Assembly: GCA_963845565.1 (NCBI GenBank) | Contig: CAWJSJ010000002.1 | Location: forward strand, 1,728,001 to 1,792,000 | Source of the DNA: an uncultured Methylomirabilota bacterium | GTDB taxonomy: Bacteria > Methylomirabilota > Methylomirabilia > Methylomirabilales > 2-02-FULL-66-22 | Direction: 5' to 3' | DNA length: 64,000 nt | Shown here: one piece after another, positions 8,657 to 64,000 of the stretch | Layout of the letters: the number at the start of each line of letters is the position of its first letter | Numbering within the stretch: position 1 is the stretch's first letter | Program-made: the position numbers and the translations under genes | The notes under the pieces: model-generated | Databases searched by the model: none | Seen by the model: the letters and a program-made list of their open reading frames with translations, nothing else | What the model was told of the DNA's origin: nothing

Positions 8657-8838
8657 GTGTACTCGGAGAATCGGGTAACGTCCAGCGGGCCGTCGTGCAG
8701 CGGACCGCCGCCGGCCGTCCCCGCGTATGACTGGACGGTGATGCCTCTTTGCCTGATCGGCCCGCCGTGGTACACTCCTCTCCGTTTCGCACGGCGCCTT
8801 GCCGTCTTCTCCCTCATCGAACTGGAGGATCACTCGTT

Positions 8839-14417: not shown

Positions 14418-14517
14418 GAGCCGTTACGAAATAACTTGGCCATTTTTTGGTTTCGTTACGGCTCCTTATGCCGTTTACGGAATTTCTCCGGTCAAGTTAT
14501 TCTTTGACAACGGCTTG
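14415..14517 (+). mobile_element. Short bipartite inverted-repeat element, family A copy 2
   Basis: Near-identical ends to copy 1. Overlaps the stop codons of both convergent flanking genes. Confidence 0.7.
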
Positions 14518-37284: not shown

Positions 37285-37581
37285 TGGGCCGTTCCAGCGG
37301 TTCCCCGGACGCGTCCGGTGAGGCACTCGCCAATCCCGACGGGCCCTGGGGCCGCGCGATTCCGGAGCGGGTACATCTCAACCAAAGGTAATCGGCCCGC
37401 GACCACACGGCGGTGACTCAGGGAGACCTTTCTGGGCATTCTCGGGCTTCGTCCCGCGGAGATGACACATGCTGATTCGGTGCGGTTCCCTGCTTTCTCC
37501 TGGGAGAACCGACACGATCAGGCAGGTGGTGTCCGGTACCGTTTCCGCTGTTACCCTTGACGCGAAAGGGAGGTGGTGGTC

Positions 37582-38058
37582 ATGGCCAAAAAACCAACCG
37601 GAAAACCCATCAAGAAGAAAACACCGGCGGTTCGGGCAAAGGTGACCAAGGCAAAGGCCGCTGCGGCGCGCAAGCCTGCGACCGCTGAGCGCCTCGACGC
37701 CCTGGAAACTGGCTTGGCCGACCTGGCCCGCAAACTGGGTAAGCTGACCCGCACGGCGGGACCAGCGGGCCCCGCGGGACCGGCCGGCGCGAAAGGAGAC
37801 AAGGGTGAACCCGGCGCGCAAGGTTCACCAGGCCCGAGGGGCGAGCGGGGCGAAACCGGGCCGCAAGGTATTCCCGGCATGAAGGGTGAGGCCGGACACC
37901 AAGGCCCGGCCGGACTCAAAGGCGAGCCTGGTCTGCAAGGGCCTGCGGGACCGAAAGGAGACAAGGGTGAACTTGGCCCGCAAGGTCCGTCTGGACCAAA
38001 GGGCGAGAAGGGAGATCGTGGCCCCCAGGGCCCCCAAGGCCCCCCAGCGTCTGCCTGA
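37582..38058 (+). CDS. Collagen-like protein (Lys/Ala-rich N-terminus, short coiled coil, 32 GXY triplets)
   Basis: Uninterrupted GXY run. GGAGGT RBS. Confidence 0.88.
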
Positions 38059-41964: not shown

Positions 41965-43101
41965 ATGCAGACAGAATGGAAAGGAGACTATCTGGATGGC
42001 CAGACCGCCATCCGGCGGGCGGCGGCGGTCCGCCTCTTGCGGAGCGGGCTGGAGATCACCACCGAGACCGGTCACACGGCCTGGTGGCCGTACGGGGAAG
42101 TGCACCAGACCCAAGGCTTCTACGAAGGCCAGGAGGTCCGCCTGGAGCGCGGCGGGCCGCTTCCGGAGGTGGTGCTGATCCGCGATGCCGCGTTCCTAAG
42201 CGCCCTCCATCGGGCGGCACCAGACGTGGCGGCGCGGTTCCACGATCCCAGCCGTCGGCGAAGGCGCAGCGCGCTCACGGCTCTCGCGGCGCTCGCCGTC
42301 GTCGGGATCACGACGGCGCTCTATCTGTGGGGGATCCCCGGGATAGCGTCCGTCGTTGCGCCGCACGTTCCGCCGTCATGGGAGGAGCGCCTGGGAAGGA
42401 GCGTGAGCGAGCACCTGGCGCCCGAGGCGAGGCGCTGCAGCGAGAAGACCCGCGCGCAGGCGATTCAGGAGATCGCCGACTCCCTTCTCTCGACCGTGCG
42501 GGATTCCCCCTACACGTTCAGAGTCATGGTCGTGAACAACCCATCGGTGAACGCCCTAGCGGCTCCTGGGGGTTACGTCGTCGTCTTCCGTGGGTTGCTG
42601 GAGCAGACCCAGACCGCCGAGGAGTTGGCGGGCGTCCTCGCGCACGAGTTCCAGCATATCCTCTTCCGGCACACGACCCGCGCACTGCTCCGACACGCCT
42701 CGACCGGGTTGCTGCTTGCCGCCATCACCGGCGATATGACCGGGCCCATGGCGTACGGACTCGAGAGTGCCCGGATTCTCGGAGAGCTTCGCTATAGTCG
42801 GCAGGATGAGGACGAGGCGGACCGGGCGGGCTTCCGAATGCTGGTGGACGCTGGCGTGGACACCGCCGGCATGATCGCCTTCTTTGAGACGCTCGCGACG
42901 GACCGACCCAGGACGCTCACCCTTCCGCCGTACCTATCCACGCACCCGACCACCGAGGGGCGAATCGAACGGCTCCGATCGCTCGATTCGCGGACGCAGC
43001 CCGTCACGACCAGACTGCTTTCCGGTGTGGACTGGCGCGATGTTCGACGCCTCTGCGGGGCCACCAACCCGCTTGTCCGCCAAGCCGTTGTCAAAGAGTA
43101 A
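41965..43101 (+). CDS. M48 family metallopeptidase (usual YjgN partner)
   Basis: NALAAPGG, LAHEFQH (HExxH), YSRQDEDEAD, STHP. Confidence 0.92.
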   Translation: MQTEWKGDYLDGQTAIRRAAAVRLLRSGLEITTETGHTAWWPYGEVHQTQGFYEGQEVRLERGGPLPEVVLIRDAAFLSALHRAAPDVAARFHDPSRRRRRSALTALAALAVVGITTALYLWGIPGIASVVAPHVPPSWEERLGRSVSEHLAPEARRCSEKTRAQAIQEIADSLLSTVRDSPYTFRVMVVNNPSVNALAAPGGYVVVFRGLLEQTQTAEELAGVLAHEFQHILFRHTTRALLRHASTGLLLAAITGDMTGPMAYGLESARILGELRYSRQDEDEADRAGFRMLVDAGVDTAGMIAFFETLATDRPRTLTLPPYLSTHPTTEGRIERLRSLDSRTQPVTTRLLSGVDWRDVRRLCGATNPLVRQAVVKE

Positions 43102-43196
43102 CCTGACCGGAGAAATTCCGGGAACGGCATAAGGAGCGGTGACGAAATTACAAGAGGTGGAGGGTTTCCCCTCCACCTCTTTTGTCACCAGGCGCC
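43081..43196 (-). mobile_element. Short bipartite inverted-repeat element, family A copy 3 (reverse)
   Basis: Reverse complement reads ...TTTCGTCACCGCTCC-TTA-TGCCGTTCCCGGAATTTCTCCGGTCAGGTTACTCTTTGACAACGGC. Confidence 0.7.
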
Positions 43197-43216
43197 GGTG
43201 AAGTCCGCCAGAGGGG

Positions 43217-43540
43217 TTAATCCTCCGATTCGCTTCGCTCGTGCCTCTCTGCTCTCTTAATGTTCAGAACACCGCCGGGGGTTGGCGGCGGCGTGCCGAC
43301 CGCGTTCACCGTGATGGTGAAGATCACCGGAGCGCTCGTCAGCGCGGGGCTCCCGTTGTCGGTGGCGGTGCCGGCCTGAGCCGTGGTCGGCGTCCAGGCG
43401 AAGGTGTTGGTCGTCGCGTTCAGGGTCGCCCCGGTGGGCAGGTTGCCCGCCGAGAAGGTCAGGGCGCTGCCAGCATCCGGATCGGTCGCGGTTGCTGTGA
43501 GCGTGAGGAGCTGGTTTTCGTTCACGCGAGCGATGGGCCT
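43217..43540 (-). pseudogene. Decayed Ig-repeat (He_PIG/cadherin-like) remnant
   Basis: VNENQLLTLTATATDPD...LPTGATL...FAWTP...DNGSPAL is homologous to the stalk repeats of 43782-46850, with an internal deletion. Confidence 0.7.
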
Positions 43541-43632
43541 ACCAGTTGCCGCCCGCTCCACTGGCTCTTGATGGAATTCTTCAGGGCTGGCACATAGAGG
43601 CAAGGAAGAGTGAGAACAGTCGCCTTGCGACG

Positions 43633-43673
43633 GAAAAATGAGAAGCGGAGGTCCACTGAAGGACCCCCGCTTC
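43633..43673 (-). terminator. Intrinsic terminator after the large CxxCH/Ig gene
   Basis: GAAGCGGRGGTCC hairpin with a minus-strand T tract. Confidence 0.6.
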
Positions 43674-43781
43674 GGAAGGTGGTGCGATGCCGCTTCACTT
43701 CACGAGCGTCTCGAGGTCGATCGAGAGGTCAGAGCCCGTTGGCGCTAGCGGTAACCGGTGCCGCGTCAGCGCCGACTCCCT

Positions 43782-46700
43782 CTAATCATCGTCAACTTGC
43801 ACTTGCGGAGCGACTGTCAATACCATCCGGCCCCACGCCTGCCAGGCGTCCGCGGTCACGCCGTTATTGCGGACCCAGGCGTGGACCTCGTAGTCTCCGG
43901 GGGCAGTGGGCGTCCAGCGGAGGGTGTTGCCGGGGGCCCACTCCTGCGCGACGCTCCAGGCGCTCCCGTTCCAGACCCACCACTTGAACTGATAGGGGGC
44001 GGTGCCCCCGGTCGCCGTGGCGGTGAGGGTGACGGACCGGCCGACCGGTCGGATGCCCGTCCGGTTGGCGGTGACGCTGGCCATGGTCGGGGCGGGGGTG
44101 GCCGTCACCGTGTAGGCGAGACGTCCCCACGCCTGCCAGGTGTCCGCGGTCACGCCGTTATTGCGGACCCAGGCATGGACCTCGTAGGCTCCGGGGACGG
44201 TGGGCGTCCAGGTGAGGGTGTTGCCGGTCCCCCACTCCCGCGCGACGGTCCAGGCGCTCCCGTTCCAGACCCACCACTTGAACTGATAGGGGGCGGTGCC
44301 CCCAGTCGCCGTGGCGGTGAGGGTGAGGGGCGTCCCGGCAACCTGCGGGCTCGCCTGGGTGGCGGTGACGCTGGACATGGTGGGAAGGGAAGCGGTGGGA
44401 GCAGCCGTCACCGTGTAGGTGAGGCGTCCCCACGCCTGCCAGGTGTCCGCGGTCACGCCGTTGTTGCGGACCCAGGCGTGGACCTCGTAGTTGCCGGGCG
44501 CCGGCGGCGTCCAGGTGAGGGTGTTGCCGGTCCCCCACTCTCGCGCGACGGTCCAGGCGCTGCCGTTCCAGACCCACCACTTGAACTGATAGGGGGCGGT
44601 GCCCCCGGTTGCCGTGGCGGTGAGCGTGAGGGCCGTCCCGGCCACCACCGGGCTCGCCTGGGTGGCGGTGACGCTGGACATGGTAATCGGGGTGGTGGCG
44701 GAGGAGCAGCCGTCACCGTGATGGTAAAGGTTTGCGAGGCGCTCAACGCCGGGCTGCCGTTGTCGGTCACGGCGACCGTCACGGAGTAGGGCGTCGCGCT
44801 GGCCTGACCCGCCGCCGGCGTCCAACTGAAGGCCCCAGCCGACGTCAAGGTCGCACCGGTCGGCAGCGTCGCGCTCGCAAAGGTCAACGCGTTACCGTCC
44901 GGATCGCTGGCACTCAGCGTGAACGAGAGCAACTGCCCGGTGTTCACCGTCTTGTTGCCTGGATTCGTCAGGACCGGCGCTCGGTTCGCGGCCGCCGGAG
45001 TGTTCACAGTGATGGTAAAGGTCACCGACGCGCTTGTCAGCGCCGGGCTCCCGTTGTCGGTGGCGGTGACCGTCACGGAGTAGGGCGTCGCGCTGGCCTG
45101 ACCCGCCGCCGGCGTCCAGGAGAAGGCGCCGGTTGTCGCGTTCAGGGTCGCGCCGGCCGGCAGGGTTGCGCCGGCGGAGAACGTCAGCGCGTTGCCGTCC
45201 GGATCACTCCCGGTGATCGTGAACGACAGCGGCTGACCTGCGGTCACCGTCTTGTTGCCGGGGTTCGTCACCGTCGGTGCACGGTTCACGGGTGCTGTCG
45301 TGCTCACCGTGATCGTGAAGGTCTGCGACGCGACCTGCCCGCCTGGGTCGGTCACAGTGACCGTCACGGAGTAAGGCGTCGCGCTGGCCTGACCCGCCGC
45401 CGGCGTCCAGCTGAAGGTTGCCGTGCCGTTGGTGAGTCCGGGGACCACGCTCGCGCCATTTGGCAACGTCGAGCTTGAGAAGACGAGCAGATCTCCGTCG
45501 GGATCGCTCGCGGTGAGCGCGAGCGTCAGCAGTTGCCCTTCGGCCACAGCCCGGTTACCGGGGTTCGTCAACACCGGCGGCCGGTTGACGTTGCCGACGG
45601 TGATGGTGAAGGCCTCGAAGTCGCTCGCCACCGGACTCCCATTGTCGGTCACGGTGATGGTGACGATGTAGGTGCCGGCCTGAGCGAAAGTGGGCGTCCA
45701 GCTGAAGGCCCCCGCCGGTGTCAGAGTCGCGCCGGTGGGCAGATCCCCCCGCCGAGAACGTCAGCGCGTTGCCGTCCGGATCCGTTGCGGTGGCGGTAAA
45801 CGCGAGGAGCACCCCCTCGGTCCCCGTCTTGGCACCGATCGGCGCCAGCACCGGAGGCCGGTTGACATTACCAACGGTGATGGTGACGATCTCCGAGGCG
45901 ATCAGGCCCCCGGTGTCGGTCACGGTCACGGTGACGTTGAAGTTACCGGCCTGACCCGTCGCCGGCGTCCAGCTGAAGGCTCCAGCCGGTGTCAGAGTCG
46001 CGCCGGTGGGCAGACCCCCCGCCGAGAAGGTCAGCGCGTTGCCGTCCGGGTCCGTCGCCGTGGCCGTGAAGGTGAGGGGCTGTCCCTCGGCCCCCGTCTT
46101 GGCACCGATCGGCGCCAGCACCGGCGGCCGGTTGACATTACCAACGGTGATGGTGAACGTCTCAAAGTCGCTCGCCACCGGACTCCCGTTGTCGGTCACG
46201 GTGATGGTGACCGAGTAGGGAGTGGTCTGCCCCTGCGTGAAGCTCGGCGTCCAACTGAAGGCGCCGGCGGGAGTCAGGGTCGCCCCGGTCGGCAGATTGC
46301 CGCCCGAGAAGGTCAGGGCATTGCCGTTCGGATCGGTCGCGGTGGCCGTGAACGTGAGCGGCTGTCCTTCGTTCACCGTCTTGGCACCGATCGGGTTCAG
46401 CACCGGCGGCTGGTTGCCGGCGACCGTCGGGTCCAGGGGCAGGTTCACCACGCCGGCCGGCAGCGTGGTCACGCCGTTGTTGTTGCAGCCGGCCGTGGTC
46501 GCGACACACCAGCCGGGCTGGGTGCCGCCTTGGATCTCCGCGAGGTTGGTGCCACCCACACCATCGGAGTTTAGGCTGTCGACGGCGATGAGATTCGCGG
46601 TGATATCGCCCGTGGCCGCCCCGCCGCCCAACGCATCGAGATCAACCCCGTAGCGGTTGAAGGACGACGCGTTGTTGCTCGCTGCGTGGCACAATTTGCA

Positions 46701-46850
46701 GGACGCAGCTTCGGTGCCGGTGTTCCCGTACCGCGCCGTGAATTGCGTCAGGTACTCCGACAACGCATGCGCCGTCCCAGGGGACAGCACCACCATGAAC
46801 AACATGAAGAAGATGACTCCAGCAGATACCCTCAGTGTCGTTGCGCGCAT
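43782..46850 (-). CDS. Secreted single-CxxCH protein with 6 He_PIG-like Ig repeats and 3 Trp-rich (Y_Y_Y-like) repeats; two frameshifts (about 45745 and 44690)
   Basis: Signal peptide ending AHA, CKLCH, NRYGVD, SDGVGGTNLAEI. NRPPVL..WTP repeats. YQFKWWVWNG repeats. Confidence 0.85.
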
Positions 46851-47276
46851 CTCGATTCCCCCCCCGTCCCGATTTATAGCAAACAACAAGTTGGTGGATG
46901 CACCCTCACGATTTCAGTTACATCATCTCTCCCCTATGCGTTCCGCTCCGGCTTGCGATCGTCGGGACCGACGCATGCATCACGCGCGCGACATGACACG
47001 CTTGTCCACAAGGTGGCCGGCCACACCATCACGCGGCTTGAATGAGATTGCCCTTCAGGATTGAGGTAATTGTTCCGCATGTCATCTGAATACGACCGGC
47101 GGCCATGTTTCGCTCTCGAAGAATAGACACATCCCGTGTGGTGATTTGCCCACGCCATGCGCCCCCACATTTTCTATATTGCACACTGAGCTATTGGGAC
47201 ACGGACCCCCGTTCGACTGAACGCAACACGGTTATCACGGATCCGTTGGACTCGGCAGAAATCCATACCTGATAAA

Positions 47277-47293
47277 AGCAATCTCCATGCCCA
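47277..47293 (-). promoter_or_regulatory. Sigma-54 promoter (-24/-12)
   Basis: GGCATGGAGATTGC (GG-N10-GC), identical in the duplicate at 51212-51228. Confidence 0.75.
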
Positions 47294-47354
47294 CACGGGA
47301 TCACGCTCGATGGATCAGGGGTCTTGGCGGCAAGTGGTCGGGATTCAAGGACGT

Positions 47355-47405
47355 TGGTGTCGAGTCACCACCGCAAACTGACCGGTCAGTCTGGTCGCCA
47401 CACCA
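47355..47405. promoter_or_regulatory. Candidate enhancer (UAS) palindrome
   Basis: ACTGACCGGTCAGT flanked by TGGTGTCG / CGCCACACCA, conserved at 51290-51340. Confidence 0.55.
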
Positions 47406-47590
47406 CGAGGGAAAGCAGGAAGTTTTTCATGAGGGCGTGTAAGAGTTACGGGCCTGCCAGGATGGGAGGGTTGCTCTTGCGTGCGCAGCGATGAACGGGC
47501 CGCGCGCGTCGTGCGTGGGTAGGCGGGCGTGTTCGCGAAAGAGGCGTTCACGCGTCGAGTCGCGAGCCCTCGCTTGCGAGTTTGTGCGAC

Positions 47591-47790
47591 CTATCGGGCG
47601 CTCCCGCTGACCTTGTTCCTCGCCGGAGTTCTGGGCGGGGCCGCCAGCGTTGCCCAATCTGTGCCCAGGGCGTTGCTCAGGTGGTAGCAGACCTTGTTCC
47701 ACTGGCGGACCAGGCCGACGGTGAGTGGCTTTGCCTCGTTGCTCTTGGCGGGGATGGCGCCCCAGCGGCGCATCGGTTCCACGCCCGATG
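47591..47790 (-). pseudogene. Duplicated 3' end of the M28 peptidase gene
   Basis: EPMRRWGAIPAKSNEAKPLTVGLVRQWNKVCYHLSNAL matches the C-terminus of 51527-53320. Confidence 0.85.
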
Positions 47791-47856
47791 GCTGAGCGAA
47801 ACGGATCGGCGATTCAGGAGTCGTGAGCGCGGCGCTGGTGGGCGACGAGGACTCTT

Positions 47857-48924
47857 CTACCGGAGACGGTACGTCTTGGTCATGAGCTGCCCCTGTCGCT
47901 GCAGGTGGAGTTCGACGACCGATATGCTCGGGTCGCGCTTGACCTGCTGATACAGTCGGAACAAGTCCGGGAAGCCGTTGATCGGCTGGCCGTTTATCGC
48001 CAGCACGACATCCCCGGCCTCGATCCCGGCCCGTTCGGCCATATTGGGGCTGACCACGCGAAAACCGCGTGGACCCAGGACCCCGTCGGCGACGGCCGAC
48101 TTCACGCTGAAGTTCATGCCCTGATCGAGCGAGAGCATCGGCCGGATCGTGGACATGGCCTCCGCCAGAATCCTCCCGCCGTGGTCGAAGGCCATCTGCG
48201 CGTCGGCCGCGTTAATCTCGTAGGTATCCGGGCCGGCCGGTTTGACCCGAACCTTGTCCAGAATCGCCTTATCCAGCCGCCGCTCCAACTGCAGCGAGCG
48301 GTCCGTTGCCGGCGGCGGGATTGGTGGAGCGGATGGGACGGCAACGGCCACGATCTGCGGGCTGGTGATATCCACTTCCAGGTGGCCGCGACGCTCCCGG
48401 ATTTGCAGCAGTCGAGGCTCGGGATCAACGGTGCTGCCCGCGGTGACATAGCGGTACTCGACCCCGTCGAGAAGGACCGTACCTTCCAGGCGCCGGCCGC
48501 CCGAGCCCGGAATCACGCCGCCCACTTCTACCCGAAACGATTTCGGGCCACGGGTATCGCGGATCTGCAGTCCGTCTGGGTGGAGTTTGTCCACGATGAA
48601 CCCTTGACCGGCCGCGTTCGGATCCGGAAGGAAATCCCCATTGGTATACAGGCGCCGTGTACTGGCTCGAGGCTCGCTGACGATGGCGAAACGTTGTGGG
48701 GTCGCGAACGTCACCTCAGCGGTCGGGGAGGGGTCCGGCGCCGTCGCCTCGATCGGCGCGCGCGACACGGGCGCGACTGGGGCCTTCGATTGAGCGGCCG
48801 GGGCCTTCGTCTGGCTCGCGGCGGCCGCCGGGTCAGTCCAGGAAAGCAGCGCACTCGCGGCCAGCGCGGTCGTCAGCGAGCACCGCCACGCGCGATGGCG
48901 CCCGATGGAAAGATGGGCTCGCAT
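47857..48924 (-). CDS. GspC-like protein with C-terminal PDZ domain (orphan)
   Basis: N-terminal hydrophobic/signal segment. C-terminus GIEAGDVVLAINGQPI..LYQQVK..LQRQGQLMTKTYRLR resembles the GspC PDZ end. Confidence 0.65.
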   Translation of the reverse strand: MRAHLSIGRHRAWRCSLTTALAASALLSWTDPAAAASQTKAPAAQSKAPVAPVSRAPIEATAPDPSPTAEVTFATPQRFAIVSEPRASTRRLYTNGDFLPDPNAAGQGFIVDKLHPDGLQIRDTRGPKSFRVEVGGVIPGSGGRRLEGTVLLDGVEYRYVTAGSTVDPEPRLLQIRERRGHLEVDITSPQIVAVAVPSAPPIPPPATDRSLQLERRLDKAILDKVRVKPAGPDTYEINAADAQMAFDHGGRILAEAMSTIRPMLSLDQGMNFSVKSAVADGVLGPRGFRVVSPNMAERAGIEAGDVVLAINGQPINGFPDLFRLYQQVKRDPSISVVELHLQRQGQLMTKTYRLR

Positions 48925-48935
48925 GTTTGCCTCCT

Positions 48936-50843
48936 TCAGCCCCGGCGGGACCGGCGGACGACCAGCCAGACTCCGACGATGGGTAGGAGCGGCATCCCAA
49001 ACCCAATCGCCGGTGACCACAATGCCAACGTCGCCCAGCCCAGGAGCGGCATCAGGGCGAACCGCACAACCGCCCGGAGGGTCTCCGAACGGCCGATGAC
49101 GCCCGCAACCCCCGGGCTCACGGCGTAGTACCAATCCACCAGCACTCGCCCTGGCCCATACGGCAGGAGATAGGTATCGCGGACCTCGCGCAGGAGCTGG
49201 ACCTGCGGTGCCAGGGGTGACCCGAACGCCGCCGTGGCGATGAAGCAGCCACCGCCCGAGGAAGCCGGTGCGGGCGCATACAGAACCGAGACAACCACAT
49301 TTGACTGCGTGCTACTCAGTACGCCATCGCTCACGACAAGTCCCACCACATAGCTTCCGGCCCAGACGGGAGTGAAGGTCGGGTTCGCCGTCGTGGGATT
49401 CCCCAGCGTCGCCGCGCTCCCCGCGGGCTGGGAGACGAAAAACCACCGGTAGGTAAGCGCTTGGCCTTGAGGATCGCTCGAGCCGCTGCCATCGAGCGTG
49501 ACCGTGGTTCCCACGGTAACCGCCTGATCCGGCCCGGCATTTGCCACCGGCGCGAGGTTTCCCGCAGCCGCGGTGACCACCACCGTATCCGGCGGGCTGT
49601 TCACCTGCCCGTCGTTGACGATCAACTGCACCGTGTAGCTGCCCGCCACATCGGCCACGAAGGTCGGCTGCACCGCCGCGACATTCGAGAGCGCCGCCAC
49701 GCTCCCCGCGGGCCGGGAGACGAACGACCAGGCGTAGGTCAGCGGATCTCCGTTGGGGTCGGTCGAGCCGCTGCCATTCAACGTGACCGTCTGCCCCACA
49801 TTGACCGCCTGATCCAGCCCGGCATTCGCCACCGGCGGGAGATTTCCCGTAGTCACCAACACCGTATCCGGCGGGCTGTTCACCTGCCCGTCGTTGACGA
49901 TCAACTGCACCGTGTAGCTGCCCGCCACATCGGCCACGAAGGTCGGCTGCACCGCCGCGACATTCGAGAGCGCCGCCACGCTCCCCGCGGGCCGGGAGAC
50001 GAACGACCAGGCGTAGGTCAGCGGATCTCCGTTGGGGTCGGTCGAGCCGCTGCCATTCAACGTGACCGTCTGCCCCACATTGACCGCCTGATCCGGCCCG
50101 GCATTCGCCACCGGCGGGAGATTCTGGGCGGGGGCCGCGGTGACCACCACCGTATCCGGCGGGCTGTTCACCTGCCCGTCGTTGACGATCAACTGCACCG
50201 TGTAGCTGCCCGCCACATCGGCCACGAAGGTCGGCTGCACCGCCGCGACATTCGAGAGCGCCGCCACGCTCCCCGCGGGCCGGGAGACGAACGACCAGGC
50301 GTAGGTCAGCGGATCTCCGTTGGGGTCGGTCGAGCCGCTGCCGTTCAGAATGGCCGTCTGCCCCACATTGACCGCCTGATCCGGCCCGGCATTTGCCACC
50401 GGGGGGGTGTTACCCGGGCCTGCCGGGTCCAGGGGCAGCGTCGGCACGGGGGGCGGCAGCGTGGTCACGCCGTTGTTGTTGCAGCCGGCGGTGGTTGCGA
50501 CACACCAACCGGGCTGGGTGCCGCCTTGGATCTCCGCGAGGTTGGTGCCGCCCACACCATCGGAGTCGAGGCCTTCGACTGCGATGAGATTCGAGGTGAT
50601 ATCGCCGGTGGCCGCCCCGCCGCCCAACGCATCGAGATCAACCCCGTAGCGGTTGAAGGACGACGCGTTGTTGCTCGCTGCGTGGCACAGTTTGCACGAC
50701 GCAGCCTCGGTGCCGGTGTTGCCGTACCGCACCGTGAATTGCGTCAGGTACTCCGACAAGGCGTGCGCCGTCCCTGCGGACAGCGCCAGTGCCAACAAGA
50801 AGGAAATGGCCGCGGCAGATACCGTTCGCGTCGTTGCCCTCAT
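48936..50843 (-). CDS. Secreted single-CxxCH protein with 4 PKD-like repeats and a CFI-box-CTERM domain
   Basis: Same head as 43782-46850, four PVANAG.DQ repeats, GGGCFIATAAFGS..LREVRD..YY..SP plus C-terminal TM and basic tail. Confidence 0.9.
   Translation of the reverse strand: MRATTRTVSAAAISFLLALALSAGTAHALSEYLTQFTVRYGNTGTEAASCKLCHAASNNASSFNRYGVDLDALGGGAATGDITSNLIAVEGLDSDGVGGTNLAEIQGGTQPGWCVATTAGCNNNGVTTLPPPVPTLPLDPAGPGNTPPVANAGPDQAVNVGQTAILNGSGSTDPNGDPLTYAWSFVSRPAGSVAALSNVAAVQPTFVADVAGSYTVQLIVNDGQVNSPPDTVVVTAAPAQNLPPVANAGPDQAVNVGQTVTLNGSGSTDPNGDPLTYAWSFVSRPAGSVAALSNVAAVQPTFVADVAGSYTVQLIVNDGQVNSPPDTVLVTTGNLPPVANAGLDQAVNVGQTVTLNGSGSTDPNGDPLTYAWSFVSRPAGSVAALSNVAAVQPTFVADVAGSYTVQLIVNDGQVNSPPDTVVVTAAAGNLAPVANAGPDQAVTVGTTVTLDGSGSSDPQGQALTYRWFFVSQPAGSAATLGNPTTANPTFTPVWAGSYVVGLVVSDGVLSSTQSNVVVSVLYAPAPASSGGGCFIATAAFGSPLAPQVQLLREVRDTYLLPYGPGRVLVDWYYAVSPGVAGVIGRSETLRAVVRFALMPLLGWATLALWSPAIGFGMPLLPIVGVWLVVRRSRRG
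49575..50400. repeat. Three near-identical intragenic PKD repeats (periods 279 and 288 nt)
   Basis: CACCGTATCCGGCGGGCTGTTCACC... recurs at 49581, 49860 and 50148. Confidence 0.92.
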
Positions 50844-51211
50844 CTCAATCCCCCCCCGTCACGGTCTTCAGAAAACAACCGATCCGCGGCCATGCCGCTC
50901 ATATGCATATCAACGAAACCGACCGGAACATCCCGACTGGTTTTGTTTTCGCGTCGATCGGGGGAAAACCAAGGAGTGTTGGGACCGTTGACACTTGCGA
51001 GAAGAACGTTTTGGCATGGTCCGGCGATCGGGTTGATCTACCGACTTCCGGAGTGGATGCGCCGTCCCATTCTCACGCAACCTCAAAAAGATTAATGTGC
51101 CAAGAACCGCCGCGCAAGAAGGTTTTATCTTTGACGCCTCGGAAGCAATTAGGGTACGAGGTACCGATGATCACGGATCCGCAGGACCTGGTGAAAACGA
51201 AAAGTGATAAT

Positions 51212-51228
51212 AGCAATCTCCATGCCTT
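51212..51228 (-). promoter_or_regulatory. Sigma-54 promoter (-24/-12)
   Basis: GGCATGGAGATTGC, conserved with 47277-47293. Confidence 0.75.
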
Positions 51229-51289
51229 CACGGATCACTTCTAATCGATTCGGAGGTCGAAGCAGGAAGTCTACCGGATTCAATGAGGT

Positions 51290-51340
51290 TGGTGTGGCGT
51301 CAACCAGGTGAACTGACGGGTCAGTCTGGTGGCCACACTA
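51290..51340. promoter_or_regulatory. Candidate enhancer (UAS) palindrome
   Basis: TGGTGTGGC...ACTGACGGGTCAGT...GCCACACTA. Confidence 0.55.
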
Positions 51341-51526
51341 CGAGGTTAGGAGCAGGTCTTACGTGGAGTGTGTAATATTTACAGGTCGGGCAGGATCTGA
51401 GAGCTGCTCGCGCGTGTACAGCAGTAATGATCGGGTCGCGCACGTCATGCGTGGGCAGGCGGGCGCGTCAGCGACCGAGGCGTCTGCTGTTCGGCTCTCG
51501 ATCCTTCGCGCGGGCGCTGGTCCGGA

Positions 51527-53320
51527 CTATCGGGCGGGCCTGCTGGCCTTGTTCCTGGCCGGAACTTTGGGCAACGCTGCCAGCGTGGCGTGGACCGTAG
51601 CCAGGGCATTGCTCAGGTGGTAACACATCTTGTTTCGTTGGCGGACCAGACCGACGACGAGTTGCTTTGCCTCGCTGCTCTTGGCGGGGATGACGCCCAA
51701 GCGGCGCATCGGCTCCAGGCCGGGGAACGGCGGGACTGGCAGCGTCGTGTCGTGGTCGAACGGGCCGGAGCGGCAGTAGTTGATCGGGATCATTTGCCGA
51801 CCGAGGGCCATCAGGCACACGTTGGCCAGTTCGGCTGCGGTCGGGGGCAGGGTCTGCGAGCGAATCGCGCGCTCGAGTCGCGCGACCGCCTTGCCGAGGT
51901 CGCCCAGCAAGCCGAAGACCGGCGTGAGATCGAAGCGGCCCTTCGCCTCTCTCGCGTACTGGGTCAGGATCGCCCGGGCTTCGGCCACCGCCGCGCGGTA
52001 GTCCAGCGGCAGAATGGGGTCTTCCAGCGCGCGCTGCGCGGCCAGCACATAGATCTGCGCGTCGCGCACCAGGTGGGCCGGGTCCAGCTTGTCCAGCGTG
52101 TCGGCCGGGGTGTGCCACCACCAGCCCAGACCGCCGCTCCGCGTCGCGCCGCCCATGAGCTGGGCGTAGGCCCGGGCGCCGTCGGAGTCGTCCGCCGGCT
52201 GTTCCGAGGGGCTCATGAAGAGCGAGGGGACGCCGTGGCCCCAGAAGGACTGGTCCGCCGCCCGCGGGGGCCGGACGCCCGACAGGCGCTGCCCCGCGAT
52301 CTTCTCCACGACGTCCGAGCCGAGGTCGCGCGCCTCGGCCATGGCGATGGCCTCGGTCATCAGCGTCGCGCCCTTGGCGCCCACGCAATCCACATTCACG
52401 TGGAGCACGCAGTGCTGATGAAGGTCCCGCCAGCAATGGTCCGCGTACCAGGCGGAGCCGCCGTACCGGGCGTGGGAATGGCCCGACCAGAAGGCGAGGC
52501 GCAAGTCGCGCCGCAGGTGCTTCTTTCTGGCGGCGAAGATGCGACCGACCTCCATCTGCGTGGCGTTGCCCGCCCCGTTGTCCATCGCCCCGTAATGCCA
52601 GGAGTCCACGTGGCCGCTCATGAGGACGAAGTCGCCGTTTCCCCGGGGCGCACGCAGATGTGCGATGAGGAGCGGGAGGGTGCGCCAGCGCGTGTCCACC
52701 TGGGTGCGGAGGCGAACGCGAACGGGACCCCGGCCCAGCGCCGCACGGAGGAGGCGGCCACCCTCGCGATTGATGGAGACCATGGGGGTCCTGGGGAGTA
52801 GGCCGGCGTTCTCGGGCGAGGGGGAGCCCCAGACGATGGAGGTGATCATCTCGTGCATCTGGTCGCCGCAGGCGTGAATCTGTGCCGCCGCTCCCGCCTG
52901 CTCGACCCGAAAGACCTTGCCCGGCATCGCGTGACCGTCGCACAGGGCCGCCCGGCCGGCAATGGGGAGGCCCGCCAACGTCGCGGGATCGGCCCGGCCG
53001 ACGTCCACCAATTCCAGCGCGACACCTTCGGGTGGTGTGGAGGCGGCCATGGAGTGCGTGATGCACGGAATGCTTGCAGGTGCGTCCCCCAGCAGCTCCA
53101 GGAGCGCTGCCACCGGCCAGCTCGTCCAGCACTCCGGCCGATGCGCCTCGATCTCGAACCCCCAGCCGCTCAATGTGCGAGCGATGTACCGGAACGCGGT
53201 ACGCTCTTCGGCCGATCCCGACAAGCGCACCCGGCGGGTGACGTGAATGAGAAAGTCCTCGAGGCGTTCCGCCGAGACCTGGTTGGCCAGGGCCCGTTCT
53301 GCCGCCGTCAGCTTTGCCAT
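51527..53320 (-). CDS. M28 family peptidase with PA-like insert
   Basis: GHVDSWHYGAMDNG, WSGHS, NVDC, ADQSF, WWHTPADT. Confidence 0.85.
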   Translation of the reverse strand: MAKLTAAERALANQVSAERLEDFLIHVTRRVRLSGSAEERTAFRYIARTLSGWGFEIEAHRPECWTSWPVAALLELLGDAPASIPCITHSMAASTPPEGVALELVDVGRADPATLAGLPIAGRAALCDGHAMPGKVFRVEQAGAAAQIHACGDQMHEMITSIVWGSPSPENAGLLPRTPMVSINREGGRLLRAALGRGPVRVRLRTQVDTRWRTLPLLIAHLRAPRGNGDFVLMSGHVDSWHYGAMDNGAGNATQMEVGRIFAARKKHLRRDLRLAFWSGHSHARYGGSAWYADHCWRDLHQHCVLHVNVDCVGAKGATLMTEAIAMAEARDLGSDVVEKIAGQRLSGVRPPRAADQSFWGHGVPSLFMSPSEQPADDSDGARAYAQLMGGATRSGGLGWWWHTPADTLDKLDPAHLVRDAQIYVLAAQRALEDPILPLDYRAAVAEARAILTQYAREAKGRFDLTPVFGLLGDLGKAVARLERAIRSQTLPPTAAELANVCLMALGRQMIPINYCRSGPFDHDTTLPVPPFPGLEPMRRLGVIPAKSSEAKQLVVGLVRQRNKMCYHLSNALATVHATLAALPKVPARNKASRPAR

Positions 53321-53549
53321 GATGTCTCCTCGCGCCGATCGTTGCGGGTGTCTCGTCGGCTGAGATGATCGCTCTGCGCCCGGCGGATTTCAACCCCGTT
53401 TTCTTGAAGCGCCGAGGCGCCGCGGGAAAGTTGTCCCACAAACTGGACAGGGGGGCCCCGAAGACGTGGCAACAGGGAGCGGGTTGGACTATACTCAGAG
53501 CGGCGTCAATCCGACCGAGCGTGCATCGGTCTTCACAGGAGGAGTACCC

Positions 53550-55826
53550 ATGGCAAGCACCGCCAAGATTGCAACCCAGGAACAGATCGAGGCCCTCGTG
53601 GCTGCCAGCCGACCCGAGCGGTTATCGGACCCCGGCAAGCGGCCGATCACGGGCGATCACGCCGCCAACGTGGTGCAGCTCACCACTTGGGGGCAGACCG
53701 CGCTGGCGGCCGACCACTTGCTGTTCCCCGAGCTGAACGGGTGCCTGCCGGGCATCGTGGCGGGGGTGATCCGGCAGCTGAACATCCGGTTCGTCGGGGC
53801 CGGCCTGCACGCGGGCGATTCGCCGGCGGAGGTCGCGCGCAAGATTCGCGATCGCCAGTACGCCTACGAAACCCTGCTCGAGACGACCATCAACTTCTGC
53901 GGACTGGAAAGCCGGTGGTTGGATGCCGCCGAGCGCTGCCAGGCGGTGGGGAGCATTCGAGGCGCCCTGGCCGAGTGGGAGGCCCGCGAGGCGGCGGAGG
54001 GGCAGGGCTCGGTGGCCGTTGCCGTCGTGCGCCGGTTTCTGGATCGGATGAAGCTGGTCCAGAAGGGAATCAGCATGGCCGCCAAGGCAGCGCTCCGGAT
54101 CGAGCAGGCGCTGGACTTCGGCAAGCCCATTCTTCTGCCGTTCCTGGACAAGGTCCACGCCGAGATCGAGGCGAACATCTACACTCGGATGGTGCGGGAA
54201 GGCCGCTGCCGCTTCGGGAACGACTACGCGCTGGGCCTCCGCTGGCTGCGTCACCTGGGGTTCGAGCAGGTGTCCACCAACCCGGTCCTGGCGGCCCTGG
54301 CCTATTCCGACGATCCGTCGCTGGCGCAGGCCCTCAACGACGAAGTGAAGTTTCACCCCAAGTTCGCCGCCTGGAAGGCCGCGCCGGAGAAATTCGGCGA
54401 CGAGATCGCGCTCTATGCGACGCTGCTGGCCCTGTGGGACAACCTGCACGTCTACCGGCCGATCTTCTTCAACCTGGCCGGCACCTCCGGCGGCGGCGTG
54501 GTCTCCTTCCAGTTGAACCCGAATATCGCCCACCTGGTGCAGGAGAGCGTTCGGGACGTCTTCGCCGCCTTTGCCGAGGCGACGGAGGATCTGCGCCTCT
54601 ATGATGACTACCTCCTGGCGGGCTATCCGGCCACGCGCGAGCGGTCCCGACCCAACGTGGTGATCAAGGTCGCGGCGTCGTCACCCGCCGCCCGCGAGAT
54701 CGCCCGGACCATCAACTCCTTCGGATTCGGCTCCAACATCACCGTCATCTACACGGTGGGCCAGGAAGTCACCATGGTTCTGGAGGAGTTGGCCGGCATG
54801 GCGGCCGCCATCAAGAAGGGGATCGTGCCCACCCAGCTCTACATGACCAACATGGGCGGCCGGTTCGAGAGCCACCTGCGGGAAGCGAAACTGGAAAGCC
54901 TCTTCGGTGAGCTGAAGGAGCTGGTCGGAGAGGCCAAGGCGCTGGCGAAGGTGAACCAGCTCGCTGCCGCGAACGGGACCAAGGCGAAGGTGGACGAGGC
55001 GAAGGGGTACGAGGCCAAGGTCGTGGCAGCCACGCGGTTCGCCAGCCAGCGGACGATCGACGCGAATGTCGCCGCAGCCCTGGCGGACGTCGCCTCCGCC
55101 GATGCCCTGAAGACCTGGGAGGACGCGATCGGCAAATCGGGCACGCTGGTAGCCCGGCGCGCCTGGGGCATCTTCTGGTCCGAGGGGAACCGGGGCAAGT
55201 GGGTCGAGTATCTTGCCAAGAAGCACCAGATCAGCAAGGAGCAGGCGGCCTTGATCCTGAGCCGCGTCAACTACCTGCCGGCCTCCAAGCGGAAGCCGCA
55301 GGACACCTACTGGACGCTGACCGGGTTCAACATGGTGCACACCGAGTTCCCGAACCACCAGGAGAACGTGCGCAAGATGGCGGAGGAACCGGGCTTCAAG
55401 CTGGCGGACTACGTCGAGTCGATCACGCAGCCGTTCCCCGCCGAGGTCGTCAAGCGACTCACCACGATTCCGGATTTCCGGCTGGGCTACGAGTTGAACG
55501 GGGAGCTCAGCCAGCTCTTGCGCCAGGTGGGAATCGACGGCGACTTCGGGATTGGAGGCCACACGCCCGAGCAGTGGCCCGAGTTCGGTTCGGTCCAGAA
55601 GACGCTGACGGAATTCAAGGCAGCCTATGACAAGTTCCGGGGCGACATGCTGTCGCTCTTCAATGCGGCGGCGGGGCCGGCGGCGAAGGTCGCCAAGCCC
55701 ACGGCTGCAAAGAAGGCTGCCGCGAAGGCGGTGACCGCGAAGAAGGCGGCGGCCAAGCCGTCGGCGAAGAAAGTCGTGAAGAAGGCGCCCAGGGCGGCGG
55801 CCACCAAGCGTGGGGCGCGCCGCTAG
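53550..55826 (+). CDS. Large transaldolase-family protein with N-terminal extension and Lys/Ala-rich tail
   Basis: FGNDY, VSTNP, VSFQLNP, PNVVIKV, NITV, MGGR. Confidence 0.75.
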   Translation: MASTAKIATQEQIEALVAASRPERLSDPGKRPITGDHAANVVQLTTWGQTALAADHLLFPELNGCLPGIVAGVIRQLNIRFVGAGLHAGDSPAEVARKIRDRQYAYETLLETTINFCGLESRWLDAAERCQAVGSIRGALAEWEAREAAEGQGSVAVAVVRRFLDRMKLVQKGISMAAKAALRIEQALDFGKPILLPFLDKVHAEIEANIYTRMVREGRCRFGNDYALGLRWLRHLGFEQVSTNPVLAALAYSDDPSLAQALNDEVKFHPKFAAWKAAPEKFGDEIALYATLLALWDNLHVYRPIFFNLAGTSGGGVVSFQLNPNIAHLVQESVRDVFAAFAEATEDLRLYDDYLLAGYPATRERSRPNVVIKVAASSPAAREIARTINSFGFGSNITVIYTVGQEVTMVLEELAGMAAAIKKGIVPTQLYMTNMGGRFESHLREAKLESLFGELKELVGEAKALAKVNQLAAANGTKAKVDEAKGYEAKVVAATRFASQRTIDANVAAALADVASADALKTWEDAIGKSGTLVARRAWGIFWSEGNRGKWVEYLAKKHQISKEQAALILSRVNYLPASKRKPQDTYWTLTGFNMVHTEFPNHQENVRKMAEEPGFKLADYVESITQPFPAEVVKRLTTIPDFRLGYELNGELSQLLRQVGIDGDFGIGGHTPEQWPEFGSVQKTLTEFKAAYDKFRGDMLSLFNAAAGPAAKVAKPTAAKKAAAKAVTAKKAAAKPSAKKVVKKAPRAAATKRGARR

Positions 55827-56453: not shown

Positions 56454-56508
56454 GTCGCCGTTTGTCGTGTGATGCGGACGGGTGATGACCGGTCCGGTGG
56501 GGAGAGCC

Positions 56509-57213
56509 ATGCAGCTTACCGTGCGAGACGTCGCGAGTCTCCTGAAGGTGTCCGAGCGGACGATCTATCGGTGGATCAAGGAGGGGACCATCCCCGCCTA
56601 CAAGATCAGCGAGCAGTACCGGTTTCACCGGGCCGAGATCCTGGAGTGGGCGACGGCGCGCCGGATCGGCGTGTCGGTGGACATCTTCGAGGAGGCCGAC
56701 GACGCCACGGCTCGTCCGCCCGTCCTCAGCGAGGCCTTGCAGGCAGGCGGGATCGTGTACCGATTGGGCGGAGCCGACAAAGAGTCGGCGTTACGCGCCG
56801 CGGTGGACGCGATGCGCCTGCCCGAAGAGGTGGACCGGGAACAGTTGCTCCGTGTGCTCGTGGCGCGCGAGGCGATGGCCTCGACGGCCATCGGGGATGG
56901 CATCGCTATCCCGCACGTGCGTAACCCCATCGTGCTGCATGTCCCACGCTCCATGGTCACGCTCTGCTTCCTCGAAAAGCCGATCGACTTCGGGGCGCTG
57001 GACGGGCAGCCGGTTCACTGTTTGTTCACCATGGTGAGCCCGACGGTGCGATCCCACCTGCATCTGCTCTCCCGGCTGGCCTTCGCGCTCCGGGACCCGG
57101 GGTTCCAGGGGGCGATCCGGCGTCAGGGGCTGCGTGACGAGATCCTGACGGAGCTCCGCCGGGTGGAGTTCGGCCTGAACGCCGCGCGGACGACCGGCCC
57201 GGCGGGCGAGTAA
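56509..57213 (+). CDS. Excisionase-type HTH fused to a PTS EIIA(Ntr/Fru-like) domain
   Basis: LTVRDVASLLKVSERTIYRW; RE..STAIGDGIAIPH; DFGALDGQPV. Confidence 0.9.
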   Translation: MQLTVRDVASLLKVSERTIYRWIKEGTIPAYKISEQYRFHRAEILEWATARRIGVSVDIFEEADDATARPPVLSEALQAGGIVYRLGGADKESALRAAVDAMRLPEEVDREQLLRVLVAREAMASTAIGDGIAIPHVRNPIVLHVPRSMVTLCFLEKPIDFGALDGQPVHCLFTMVSPTVRSHLHLLSRLAFALRDPGFQGAIRRQGLRDEILTELRRVEFGLNAARTTGPAGE

Positions 57214-57219
57214 TCCTCG

Positions 57220-59215
57220 ATGACGCTTTTCCTGTTCGCGATGGGTGTGATCGTCCTGGGCGGTCTGTCGGCCCTGATCGCCGGCCGTTCCGCCAGACGC
57301 GCCTCGCTACTCGGGGCGGGCGGCGCGGTGACAGGCTGTGCGCTGGCGCTGGGTCCGGCACTCCGGGCGCTCCTCGGGGGGCCGTTGGAGCGGCTGGACG
57401 CCCCGTGGAGCATGCCCGGGGGGAGCTTCTCGGTCGCGCTGGATCCGGTGTCCGGCCTCTTTCTGGTCCCGACGCTGTTCCTCTCGGCGTTGGCCGCCGT
57501 GTACGGAACGGGCTACCTGAAGCCATTCGGTGCGACCAGGGCGCTCGGGGAGGCCTGGTTCTGTTTCGACCTCCTGGTCGTCAGCATGGCGCTGGTCATG
57601 GTCGCCAGGAACGGCGTGCTGTTCCTGGTCGCCTGGGAGGTGATGGCGCTGGCGTCCTTCTTCCTGGTGACCTTCGATCGCAAAACCGCGAGCGTCCGCG
57701 ACGCCGGCTGGACATACCTGATCGCCACGCACCTGGGTACGGCGTTCCTCCTGGCCATGTTCGTGTTGCTTGGAGGCGCGACCGGCTCGCTCGAGTTCGA
57801 CGGCTTCGGGACGGTCGCGGGGACCGCCCCAGGGCTGATCGGGCCGCTCTTCCTCCTCGCGGTCATCGGATTCGGCACCAAGGCCGGATTCATCCCGCTG
57901 CACGTCTGGCTGCCGGAGGCGCACCCCGCCGCGCCCAGCCATGTCTCGGCGGTCATGTCCGGCGTGATGATCAAGACGGGGATCTACGGCCTCGTGCGCT
58001 TTCTGATCGTCCTCGGTCCGCCGCCGGTGTGGTGGGGGTGGCTGCTGATCGGGATCGGAGTGACCTCGGGCGTTCTCGGCGTTCTTCTGGCACTGGCCCA
58101 GCACGACCTCAAGCGGCTGCTCGCCTACCACAGCGTCGAGAACATCGGCATCATCACGCTCGGGCTTGGCCTCGGGACGCTGGGCGTCGCCACAGGCATG
58201 CCCGCGCTGGCCGTGCTCGGGTTCGGCGGCGGACTGCTGCACGTCGTGAACCACGCGCTCTTCAAGGGACTGCTGTTCTTGGGGGCGGGTGCTGTGCTGC
58301 ACGGCGCGGGCACGGGGGAGATCGATCATCTCGGTGGACTGCAGCGGCGGATGCCCTGGACGGGCACCTGTTTCCTGGTGGGGGCGGCGGCCATCTCGGG
58401 GCTCCCGCCGCTCAACGGCTTCGTAAGCGAGTTCCTCATCTATCTGGGGGCGTTTCTGGGGGTGATCGCGGCCGCGGGGACGGTGGGGATCCTGGTCTCG
58501 GGGCTTGTCACTATCGGCGCGCTGGCGCTCATCGGCGGACTGGCGGCGGCCTGTTTCACCAAGGCGTTCGGGATCGTGTTCCTGGGCGAGCCCCGGAGCC
58601 ACCATGCTGCGGATGCGCACGAGGCGGGTGCGAGCCATGCGGTGGCCGATGGCGATCCTGGCGGCGGGCTGCGCTGTGGTCGGCCTCTTCCCGGCGCCGG
58701 CGCTGCGGGCCTTGGCGCCTGCGCTGCGCCTCGTCACGCGGCAGCCGGAGACGGCAGTCGCCGGGGCGCTCGCCGATGCGGCGACCCCGCTCTGGATGAT
58801 CACGGCGGTGGCGACGGTTTTCCTGGCCGCGGTCCTGCTCCTGGCCGCGGTGCGCCGGAAGTGTCTGGCGGGTCGGCCGGTGGAGGAGACCGTGACCTGG
58901 GATTGCGGATACGCGCGACCGACCGCCCGCATGCAGTACACGGCGTCGTCGTATGCGCAACCGTTGACCGAACTCTTTCGGCTGGTCCTGCGGACGCGAG
59001 TCCGCCTGGTCGCGCCGACGGGCCTCTTCCCGTCGCGAGCGATGCTGGTCACGGAGACGCCGGACGTGTTCCGCGAGGCCGTCTTCCGGCCGGCGTTTGT
59101 CGGGATCCGGCGGGCGCTCGATCGCCTGCGGATCCTCCAGCACGGACGGATCCAGCTCTATGTTCTGTACGTCGTGCTGACGCTGGTCGCCCTGATGGTG
59201 TGGACGCTGCGATGA
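57220..59215 (+). CDS. hyfB: HyfB-like antiporter subunit (frameshift near 58635)
   Basis: PLHVWLPEAHPAAPS, KRLLAYHSVENIG, NHALFK, WDCGY...RMQYT. Confidence 0.85.
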
Positions 59216-60141: not shown

Positions 60142-60145
60142 AGCG

Positions 60146-60796: not shown

Positions 60797-60803
60797 TCCG
60801 GTG

Positions 60804-63817: not shown

Positions 63818-63825
63818 GGGCGCGG

Positions 63826-64000
63826 ATGCTGAGAGAGCTCGTCGAGCGCATCCGGCAGGGATACCGGACCATGGCGTATCCCGACGGCGAGCCGGTCCTG
63901 CCGGACCGGTTCCGCGGCCGGCCGGTCATCGACGGCGCCGCGTGCCCGCCGGACTGCCGGGCGTGCGTCGCCGCCTGTCCCACCGGCGCAATCGGCGGAA
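63826..64000 (+). CDS. 4Fe-4S subunit (HyfH/I-like), truncated at the window end
   Basis: RFRGRP..CPPDCRACVAACPTGAI. Confidence 0.8.
   Translation, partial: MLRELVERIRQGYRTMAYPDGEPVLPDRFRGRPVIDGAACPPDCRACVAACPTGAIGG

Follow-up and report, generated by a model that had tools for sequence, protein, structure and literature searches.

We analyzed a 64,000-nucleotide stretch of genome from an uncultured Methylomirabilota bacterium (the window) and found, on its reverse strand, tandem paralogues in which one CxxCH head is carried on different immunoglobulin (Ig)-like stalks behind a shared, likely sigma-54 promoter. The promoter motifs, the head-and-stalk architecture, the exchange of heads between genes and the pairing of a C-terminal CFI-box with a GspC-like gene were observed directly. 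The reading that we favor, and to which we give about an even chance, is that the genes encode secreted single-heme redox proteins that act extracellularly, some anchored and some released. The system is a real one, made of known kinds of parts (a stalked extracellular cytochrome, a CTERM tag and sigma-54 control) joined to a head domain that carries no name.

The window lies on contig C2 of the source genome (G000); the closest comparison was offered by G009, a genome of another species of the same genus. The gene pmoA (2 of 5 genomes tested) was not found in G000, and the same order includes a genus with pmoA; the host probably belongs to a nonmethanotrophic family of Methylomirabilales.

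One head on different stalks

In a blastn self-comparison of 43–54 kb, two segments were found to occur twice. One holds the ribosome-binding site (RBS), signal peptide and head (46401–46887 vs. 50397–50879, 86.9% identity over 487 nt), and the other the 3′ end of an M28-family peptidase gene, a palindrome and a sigma-54 motif (47234–47785 vs. 51170–51721, 74.3% over 556 nt). The leader of about 300 nt from promoter to RBS is unalignable between the two genes, which we call A and B (Table 1). The original prediction had described a 1.3-kb block occurring twice in tandem; the duplication stands, but as two homologous segments around an unalignable leader and not as one block. Near-identical heads with no likeness beyond them had also been predicted, and we found the heads of A and B to be 95% identical over 98 amino acids (5 amino-acid and 11 synonymous codon differences), with the similarity stopping at the end of the head. 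The assignment of four PKD repeats and a CFI-box-CTERM domain (NF041770) to gene B agreed with a profile score of 87.9 bits at residues 533–600 (cut-off 40), and that of a third, decayed Ig stalk downstream with a match to He_PIG. The six He_PIG-like and three Trp-rich repeats of gene A and its lack of an anchor were likewise recovered, but gene A is not a single open reading frame (ORF) in the window. Overlooked at that stage were how common the head is and its kinship to Temptin_C and GEGP proteins, the other heme heads on the same stalk type, the third head gene and the frameshifts.

Gene A is split over frames by an additional base near 45744 and a missing base near 44700. A metagenome contig 96–97% identical to the window (L013) has neither indel, encodes an intact gene A protein of 823 amino acids and keeps the order of gene B end, GspC-like gene, M28 relic, promoter, gene A, relic and M48 gene. 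A second contig (L014) covers the M28 gene through the GspC-like gene. The two overlap at 48659–48993 and jointly span both units; no single read or contig across both units was found among the pieces, which come from four DNA runs. Doubt about the duplication had centered on an assembly chimera, and this is largely refuted because the overlapping contigs cover both units and G009 has the same locus, with the reservation that the two units are bridged by no one read or contig. The proteins P0004 (PKD) and P0007 (He_PIG-Trp) are probably encoded on one contig. Intact relatives of gene A have no hydrophobic C-terminal segment and gene B has the CFI-box tail, in agreement with the predicted contrast of anchored and unanchored forms. 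Repeat numbers among intact relatives range over 2–4 for PKD, 5–6 for He_PIG and 2–3 for the Trp-rich repeats, and collapse of short reads may explain part of this variation. The hydrogenase-like ORF at 57220–60141 also looks frameshifted, and the assembly is therefore indel-prone. An RNA-run contig of X16 lies over head B (50262–50640, 8 differences) and RNA-run pieces of X17 over gene A; as they carry neither strand nor level, they were not counted as expression.

Among 60 relatives, close heads were found in G009 only. Its locus has three genes in a row: a head-He_PIG-Trp gene; a head-PKD-CFI gene with a GspC-like gene and an M28 relic; and a third gene with a He_PIG stalk. The first two are in reversed order relative to the window. 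The third gene, at the place of the window's relic, ends in ASH-like and C-terminal domains, and its head (L011 5276–5671, G009:C31) comprises about 20 residues around the CxxCH, after a signal peptide and behind the same promoter. This mini-head is microperoxidase-like and is known from one frameshift-rich assembly. A fourth head gene of G009 is located on another contig, and a third head gene of G000, with FN3-like repeats, on contig C1; the latter (L001 1559–9000), whose FN3-like repeats are of a Trp/Cys type, closes a run of large frameshifted surface-protein genes that share these repeats. In G006 (L080 647–2734, G006:C135), a He_PIG stalk is joined to an unrelated head with two CxxCH and a beta domain, and no clear palindrome was seen by eye at that gene. 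A tblastn search of plasmids gave no match.

In head DNA, identity is 95% in G000 and 82% in the G009 locus but falls to 60–62% between the genomes, a comparison in which orthologous stalk pieces still reach 72, 85 and 87%. Trees forced to group the heads by stalk were rejected by the approximately unbiased (AU) test (p-AU 6e-44 and 1e-8; 7 rows, with two long branches). Since the heads group by genome while orthologous stalks stay alike, heads have been exchanged or homogenized within each genome, a process that probably acts on the repeated promoter-head segments. The shuffling of heads and stalks foreseen from the sequence is borne out by these tests and by the many partner domains found elsewhere.

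A search of 50% clusters with the head returned 344 clusters at E ≤ 0.001, nearly always directly behind a signal peptide. Within the phylum, the domain is rare (6 of 251 genomes, GEGP types included), and its homologues are annotated in databases as hypothetical or PKD proteins. Of 164 aligned heads, a set that contains near-identical ones, 159 have the CxxCH motif, which is at residues 50–55 in the window proteins; NxYG, a DSD loop, N..EI and PG are conserved in the alignment as well. With the cleavage site predicted independently, the first Cys is preceded by 21–22 residues in 106 of 220 heads (20–25 residues in 148 and 28 in 30); this spacing recalls the amine ligation of cytochrome f but may only reflect the first helix. 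Partner domains were scanned in 53 of 145 new longer homologues: 21 had PKD (6 of these with further cytochrome c domains), 9 ASH/Cep192, 5 glucose/sorbosone dehydrogenase, 3 FG-GAP and 8 others, while 7 matched no family. Three proteins (P0029, P0033 and P0035) consist of four to seven tandem heads with a FLPxxxK-like tail and are candidate multiheme chains of the head domain. By its sequence, then, the head looks to be a widespread, unnamed single-CxxCH domain that likely binds heme, and G000 contains three PF01578 cytochrome c assembly genes. The same genome has 16 reading frames with at least three CxxCH (up to 15), some possibly spurious, as candidate redox partners.

The two window heads have no match in Pfam (Temptin_C, PF24784, cut-off 27 bits). 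Temptin_C matches were obtained for 14 of 78 homologues at E ≤ 1, and for 4 of 38 above the cut-off; bridging homologues such as P0158 link the head to Temptin_C. The C-terminal half of the head, with NxYG, the DSD loop, N..EI and PG, aligns to Temptin_C profile positions of about 26–75, and in the Atlas the head adjoins Temptin_C clusters (score 0.93, 176 shared features). The DSDXD calcium motif is incomplete in both window heads, where the second Asp is missing; D[ST]DxD is found in 97 of 244 homologues and [DN][ST]D in 227 of 244 heads. The GEGP diheme profile NF041762 matches the head region only, at 19–23 bits (cut-off 300). By these matches, the head is distantly related to Temptin_C and to GEGP diheme proteins. 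A true member of NF041762 (441 bits) is encoded in G000 (L002 7053–8630, G000:C5), near aldehyde oxidoreductase-like and phosphatase-like genes. The head is modeled with five helices (pLDDT 92.9). Sequence searches of solved structures with the head and its profile gave nothing significant, and the model found no Foldseek match in the Protein Data Bank (PDB) and a best VIA-align Z of 2.9, which is no proof of a new fold.

Shared promoters and a tag with its partner gene

The pattern GGCAYG-N4-TTGC with a CTGACCGGTCAG-like palindrome 98–100 nt upstream is present in front of all seven head genes of the genus (three in G000 and four in G009), and the base preceding GG in the window's two sigma-54 motifs is G or A. 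These two elements are the best-conserved windows of the promoter alignment (0.94 and 0.88 vs. 0.67). Among 5,000 random 500-nt windows, the strict motif occurred in 0.04% and the loose motif in 4%. Across 251 genomes of the phylum, the combined pattern was found in two, at three places, all in front of head genes, and the reversed control gave none. A GG-N10-GC motif with TTGC, an upstream palindrome, and the presence in G000 of rpoN and of about 31 full activators (31 of 38 PF00158 matches above 190 bits) together point to sigma-54 promoters. A genome-wide position weight matrix scan revealed no further regulon member, the next score being 13 bits vs. 39–55 for the three training promoters, a comparison that is circular for those three. 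The palindromes and sigma-54 motifs predicted in front of both genes were located, and the proposed co-regulated family is consistent with the same promoter architecture at seven of seven head genes in two species. Four GEGP-type genes that were checked and the head gene of G082 showed no such promoter site, and L003 has a loose sigma-54 site without the palindrome, L016 and L064 being left out of this check; as GEGP-type and out-of-genus heads lack the pair, co-regulation is a trait of the genus and not of the domain. Blocks of the gene A leader (46851–47276) are conserved in G009 and in the head gene on C1. An Rfam scan of 43000–54000 gave four matches, all far below gathering scores, and no riboswitch in the leaders.

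The C terminus of gene B consists of the CFI-box with a hydrophobic tail and an Arg cluster, and is followed by the GspC-like gene. For 61 genomes, we compared CFI-box genes above the cut-off with GspC-like homologues counted at E < 1e-10, after dropping weaker PDZ-only matches and merging split pieces. Each was found in 24 genomes; 22 genomes have both, 4 have one and 35 have neither. Of 31 GspC-like places, 22 have a CFI-box gene on their strand at a distance of no more than 2.5 kb, and 23 of 37 CFI-box places have a GspC-like neighbor in this sense. In six genomes (G007, G023, G027, G040, G053 and G057), the two are one ORF in the order stalk, CFI-box, hydrophobic segment, basic loop, second hydrophobic segment and GspC-like part, which places the CFI-box inside the protein; G002:C519 was left out of this count for an apparent frameshift. 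The fusion in G027 lies just downstream of GspF, GspE, secretin and pseudopilin genes, the G000 orthologues of which are at C2:2.676–2.684 Mb, about 0.9 Mb from the window. The GspC-like protein adjoins T2SSC clusters in the Atlas at 0.88, with the HR domain unmatched. Going by these sequence patterns, the GspC-like PDZ gene is a conserved companion of the CFI-box tag across the order, a pairing that is new here, and the link of the GspC-like gene to the system is stronger than had been proposed. Kinship to PilP was considered for the GspC-like protein and discarded, as its profile showed no similarity to the PilP of G000. A second CFI-box/GspC-like cluster, with FG-GAP-like repeats, is found in G000 (L117, C4:28000–31600), and a third GspC-like gene (C5:581807–582817) has no CFI-box neighbor.

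Weighing the explanations

Under the favored reading, one enhancer-binding protein would bind the palindrome and turn on all head genes together. The signal peptide would direct the products across the inner membrane, and the cytochrome c maturation system would place one heme c on the CxxCH; because no Met or His is conserved, the sixth iron position may be taken by the mature N-terminal amine or an outside ligand, or may be open. A type II secretion-like machine would then carry the proteins out. Protein B, with its CFI-box tag, would have the GspC-like PDZ protein as its adaptor and would stay at the surface, and protein A would be released or stick by its Trp-rich repeats. The head would swap single electrons with extracellular partners by contact, as a PgcA-like "heme on a chain" and not as a wire. 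Recombination between promoter-head segments would keep the heads alike within a genome and reshuffle the order of genes. The redox function is proposed because of the fusion partners (dehydrogenases and cytochrome domains) and the tandem heads.

A number of observations weigh against this reading. By the established tunnelling limit, a single heme at the end of a heme-free stalk has no electron path to the cell, and no redox partner has been identified for the head. The idea that the stalks hold the same head at different distances from the cell finds no support in that form, as a lone heme on a nonconducting stalk cannot send electrons along it and stalk length varies between strains. No distal Met or second His is conserved among the 164 aligned heads, and 126 of 244 heads lack any other Met or His, which fits a ligand-binding or catalytic heme equally; the internal repeats of the tandem-head proteins have no free N terminus, and amine ligation is therefore not general. 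Head genes outside the genus (L063 and L003) lack the promoter pair. At G000:C1:202441, the palindrome recurs with one mismatch in front of a TetR-like gene and an efflux operon, where there is no sigma-54 site, so that it may be a repressor site. As for the export route, a GspC-like neighbor is missing at 14 of the 37 CFI-box places, some of them on short contigs, and the co-occurrence counts include kin and hence are not independent. The GspC-like protein scores 30.2 bits against NF041515 (cut-off 150), over the PDZ only, and Foldseek matches this PDZ to EpsC and PulC and equally to HtrA. Its split form has no clear membrane helix, whereas the fused forms have the second hydrophobic segment. 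Among the secretins of G000, none is above the GspD cut-off and one is PilQ.

The lack of conserved distal Met or His, the lone heme on an insulating stalk and the G009 mini-head, whose 20 or so residues could not enclose a heme, are also what one expects if the heme c of the head is five-coordinate and works on a small ligand (O2, NO, peroxide or sulfide) at the surface, by binding it or turning it over, as scavenger, catalyst or sensor, with the stalks only for display. We consider this unlikely though worth serious attention: the dehydrogenase and cytochrome fusions and the four to seven tandem heads are more in keeping with electron transfer, an N-terminal ligand is hinted at by the tight spacing from signal to Cys, and the mini-head comes from a single error-rich assembly. 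Stalks of PKD, He_PIG, FN3 and ASH type are typical of adhesins, and the genes could instead encode adhesins or matrix proteins with a temptin-like, calcium-binding, adhesive head, the CxxCH being structural (a heme scaffold, disulfide or metal site). The resemblance of the head to Temptin_C and its prevalent [DN][ST]D speak for this, as does the Ca-binding DSDXD motif of temptin, to which roles in attraction and biomineralization are ascribed in the available part of the report (PMC10075465). A near-invariant CxxCH right behind the signal peptide, the missing second Asp of DSDXD in the window heads and the homogenization of heads within a genome, where variable adhesin tips are diversified, make this explanation rather improbable.

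Two further explanations concern the locus more than the function of the head. The palindrome could be a TetR-type operator or a passenger of the duplication, with the shared promoters reflecting recent copying and not selected co-activation; the copy in front of the TetR-like gene and the 74% likeness of the whole promoter region between A and B can be cited in its favor. The motifs and their 98–100-nt spacing are, however, kept in divergent copies, on other contigs and in front of heads that are merely 44–61% alike, and we give this explanation a low probability. That the arrangement is an artefact or a decaying duplication, the units being chimeric or gene A a pseudogene, could appeal to the two frameshifts, the headless relic in the window and the lack of a read spanning both units. 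Against this, L013 has neither frameshift and keeps the gene order, L014 covers unit B and the proteins P0007 and P0008 are intact. At the first frameshift site, a contig of X7 reads across with one gap, and at the second an X18 contig of depth 2 carries one inserted base. The locus is also present in G009. This explanation is already largely refuted, and its probability is very low.

A more far-reaching version of the favored reading joins several parts, and as a whole we hold it to be tentative and somewhat unlikely. In it, the head would be an undescribed cytochrome c fold that uses its own N-terminal amine as ligand, and animal temptin would have in it a bacterial relative that binds heme; where temptin precedes copper monooxygenases, it would be an electron-donor module derived from a cytochrome. 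In this genus, at least three kinds of heme heads would be interchangeable tips that recombination moves between Ig stalks, with a single sigma-54 activator in control; and the CFI-box with its adjacent or fused GspC-like protein would define a new sorting route that works in cis, every cargo supplying its own adaptor to type II secretion. More generally, the widespread and unannotated head, a putative monoheme domain, adds to the few extracellular cytochromes of the "heme on a chain" kind, and is tied to temptin. The head, a predicted 110-residue protein with a confident model, appears fit for expression. The pairing and fusion of the CFI-box with the GspC-like part provide a lead on the surface route of an orphan tag and on the choice of cargo in type II secretion, and the locus displays the exchange of heads between surface-protein genes directly.

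Other features of the window and known systems

Table 1. Features of the head-gene locus, in window coordinates
Feature	Position	Strand	Basis or remark
M28-family peptidase gene; 3′ end within repeated segment	51527..53320	-	Pfam PF04389; blastn
Palindrome, likely upstream activator sequence (UAS) of gene B	51312..51325	-	99 nt upstream of sigma-54 GG
Sigma-54-type -24/-12 motif of gene B	51212..51226	-	GG-N10-GC
Gene B, 635 aa: signal peptide, CxxCH head, 4 PKD, CFI-box-CTERM	48936..50843	-	
Gene B parts	CxxCH at 50696; PKD from 50396; CFI-box-CTERM from 49247	-	head at residues about 29-135
GspC-like gene, 356 aa: signal-like N terminus, beta-rich domain, PDZ	47857..48927	-	start 9 nt past gene B stop
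M28 3′-end relic in front of gene A	47590..47785	-	blastn
Perfect palindrome, likely UAS of gene A	47377..47390	-	sole exact copy in genome
Sigma-54-type -24/-12 motif of gene A	47277..47291	-	
Gene A leader, about 430 nt	46851..47276	-	no Rfam match; conserved in G009 and, in part, among other copies
Gene A: signal peptide, CxxCH head, 6 He_PIG, 3 Trp-rich Y_Y_Y-like repeats, no anchor	43782..46850	-	
Gene A parts	CxxCH at 46700; He_PIG from 46415	-	frameshifts near 45744 and 44700
Headless relic of third He_PIG-stalk gene	43217..43603	-	also in L013; full third gene at matching G009 place

Outside the locus, an AT-rich dispersed repeat of about 75 bp, resembling repetitive extragenic palindromic (REP) elements or miniature inverted-repeat transposable elements (MITEs), lies at 43082–43160 and again at about 8552–8657 and 14413–14517. 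Blastn gives 207 matches to it across the genome (E ≤ 1e-3); in many metagenomes its contig depth is very high, and Rfam has no match to it at gathering level. A short collagen-repeat protein (PF01391) with a Lys-rich N terminus and no signal peptide is encoded at 37573–38058. The 786-aa protein at 53466–55826 has no Pfam or NCBIfam match; motifs resembling those of transaldolase were spotted in it by eye, and its Lys/Ala tail is like that of a histone. The end of the window (56482–64000) holds a regulator with helix-turn-helix (HTH) and phosphotransferase system (PTS) EIIA parts, followed by a hydrogenase-4/Mrp-like membrane complex, in which long ORFs look frameshift-joined.

Molluscan temptin differs from the window heads, which carry CxxCH, in that the parts of the temptin sources available gave no heme role for it. 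Temptin is fused to a monooxygenase where relatives have DOMON, according to the portion of the source at hand (PMC2762978), and no bacterial temptin appeared by title among the literature matches listed. The GEGP diheme protein has an N-terminal region homologous to the head; the window proteins differ from it in having one heme motif and not two, no GEGP domain and an Ig stalk instead. In cytochrome f, a beta-rich thylakoid protein, about 20 residues separate the mature N terminus from the CxxCH and the N-terminal amine is the sixth ligand. The head is alike in this spacing, whereas its model is helical and has no structural match. Cyc2, a cytochrome-porin covered in the accessible parts of two sources (10.1101/228056; PMC13692758), the first of which gives its AXPXFAR[Q/K][T/Y] motif, is similar in its single CxxCH close behind the signal peptide of a surface protein. 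Membership in Cyc2, by the motif as given there, was rejected for the window proteins, which have no AXPXFAR[Q/K][T/Y] five residues before the CxxCH and no porin.

The CFI-box shares an invariant Cys, a hydrophobic segment and an Arg cluster with two tags routed through type II secretion, GlyGly-CTERM (rhombosortase) and MYXO-CTERM (myxosortase), as these are described in the part of the paper that could be consulted, which does not name CFI (10.1101/2023.06.07.544157). It differs from them, on the same partial source, in its longer helical domain and in the GspC-like partner adjacent or fused behind it; rhombosortase and myxosortase are known for the other two tags, while for the CFI-box no processing protease has been identified and none was searched for. 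Distant homologues of the head end in GlyGly-like tails. The term "CFI-box-CTERM" gave no literature match, nor did a monoheme extracellular PKD cytochrome, subscription journals being outside the scope of both searches.

Close in design is PgcA of Geobacter sulfurreducens, a likeness by architecture with no sequence comparison behind it. As far as the available part of the source describes it (PMC12307469), PgcA is secreted, bears its hemes in separate domains on nonconducting tethers and is proposed to be a short-range electron shuttle, and in this the window proteins are predicted to be like it. Set against the three hemes and Pro-Thr tethers given there, the system in the window has one heme motif in a fold without a solved match, Ig-like stalks, an array of paralogues and a CFI-box anchor.

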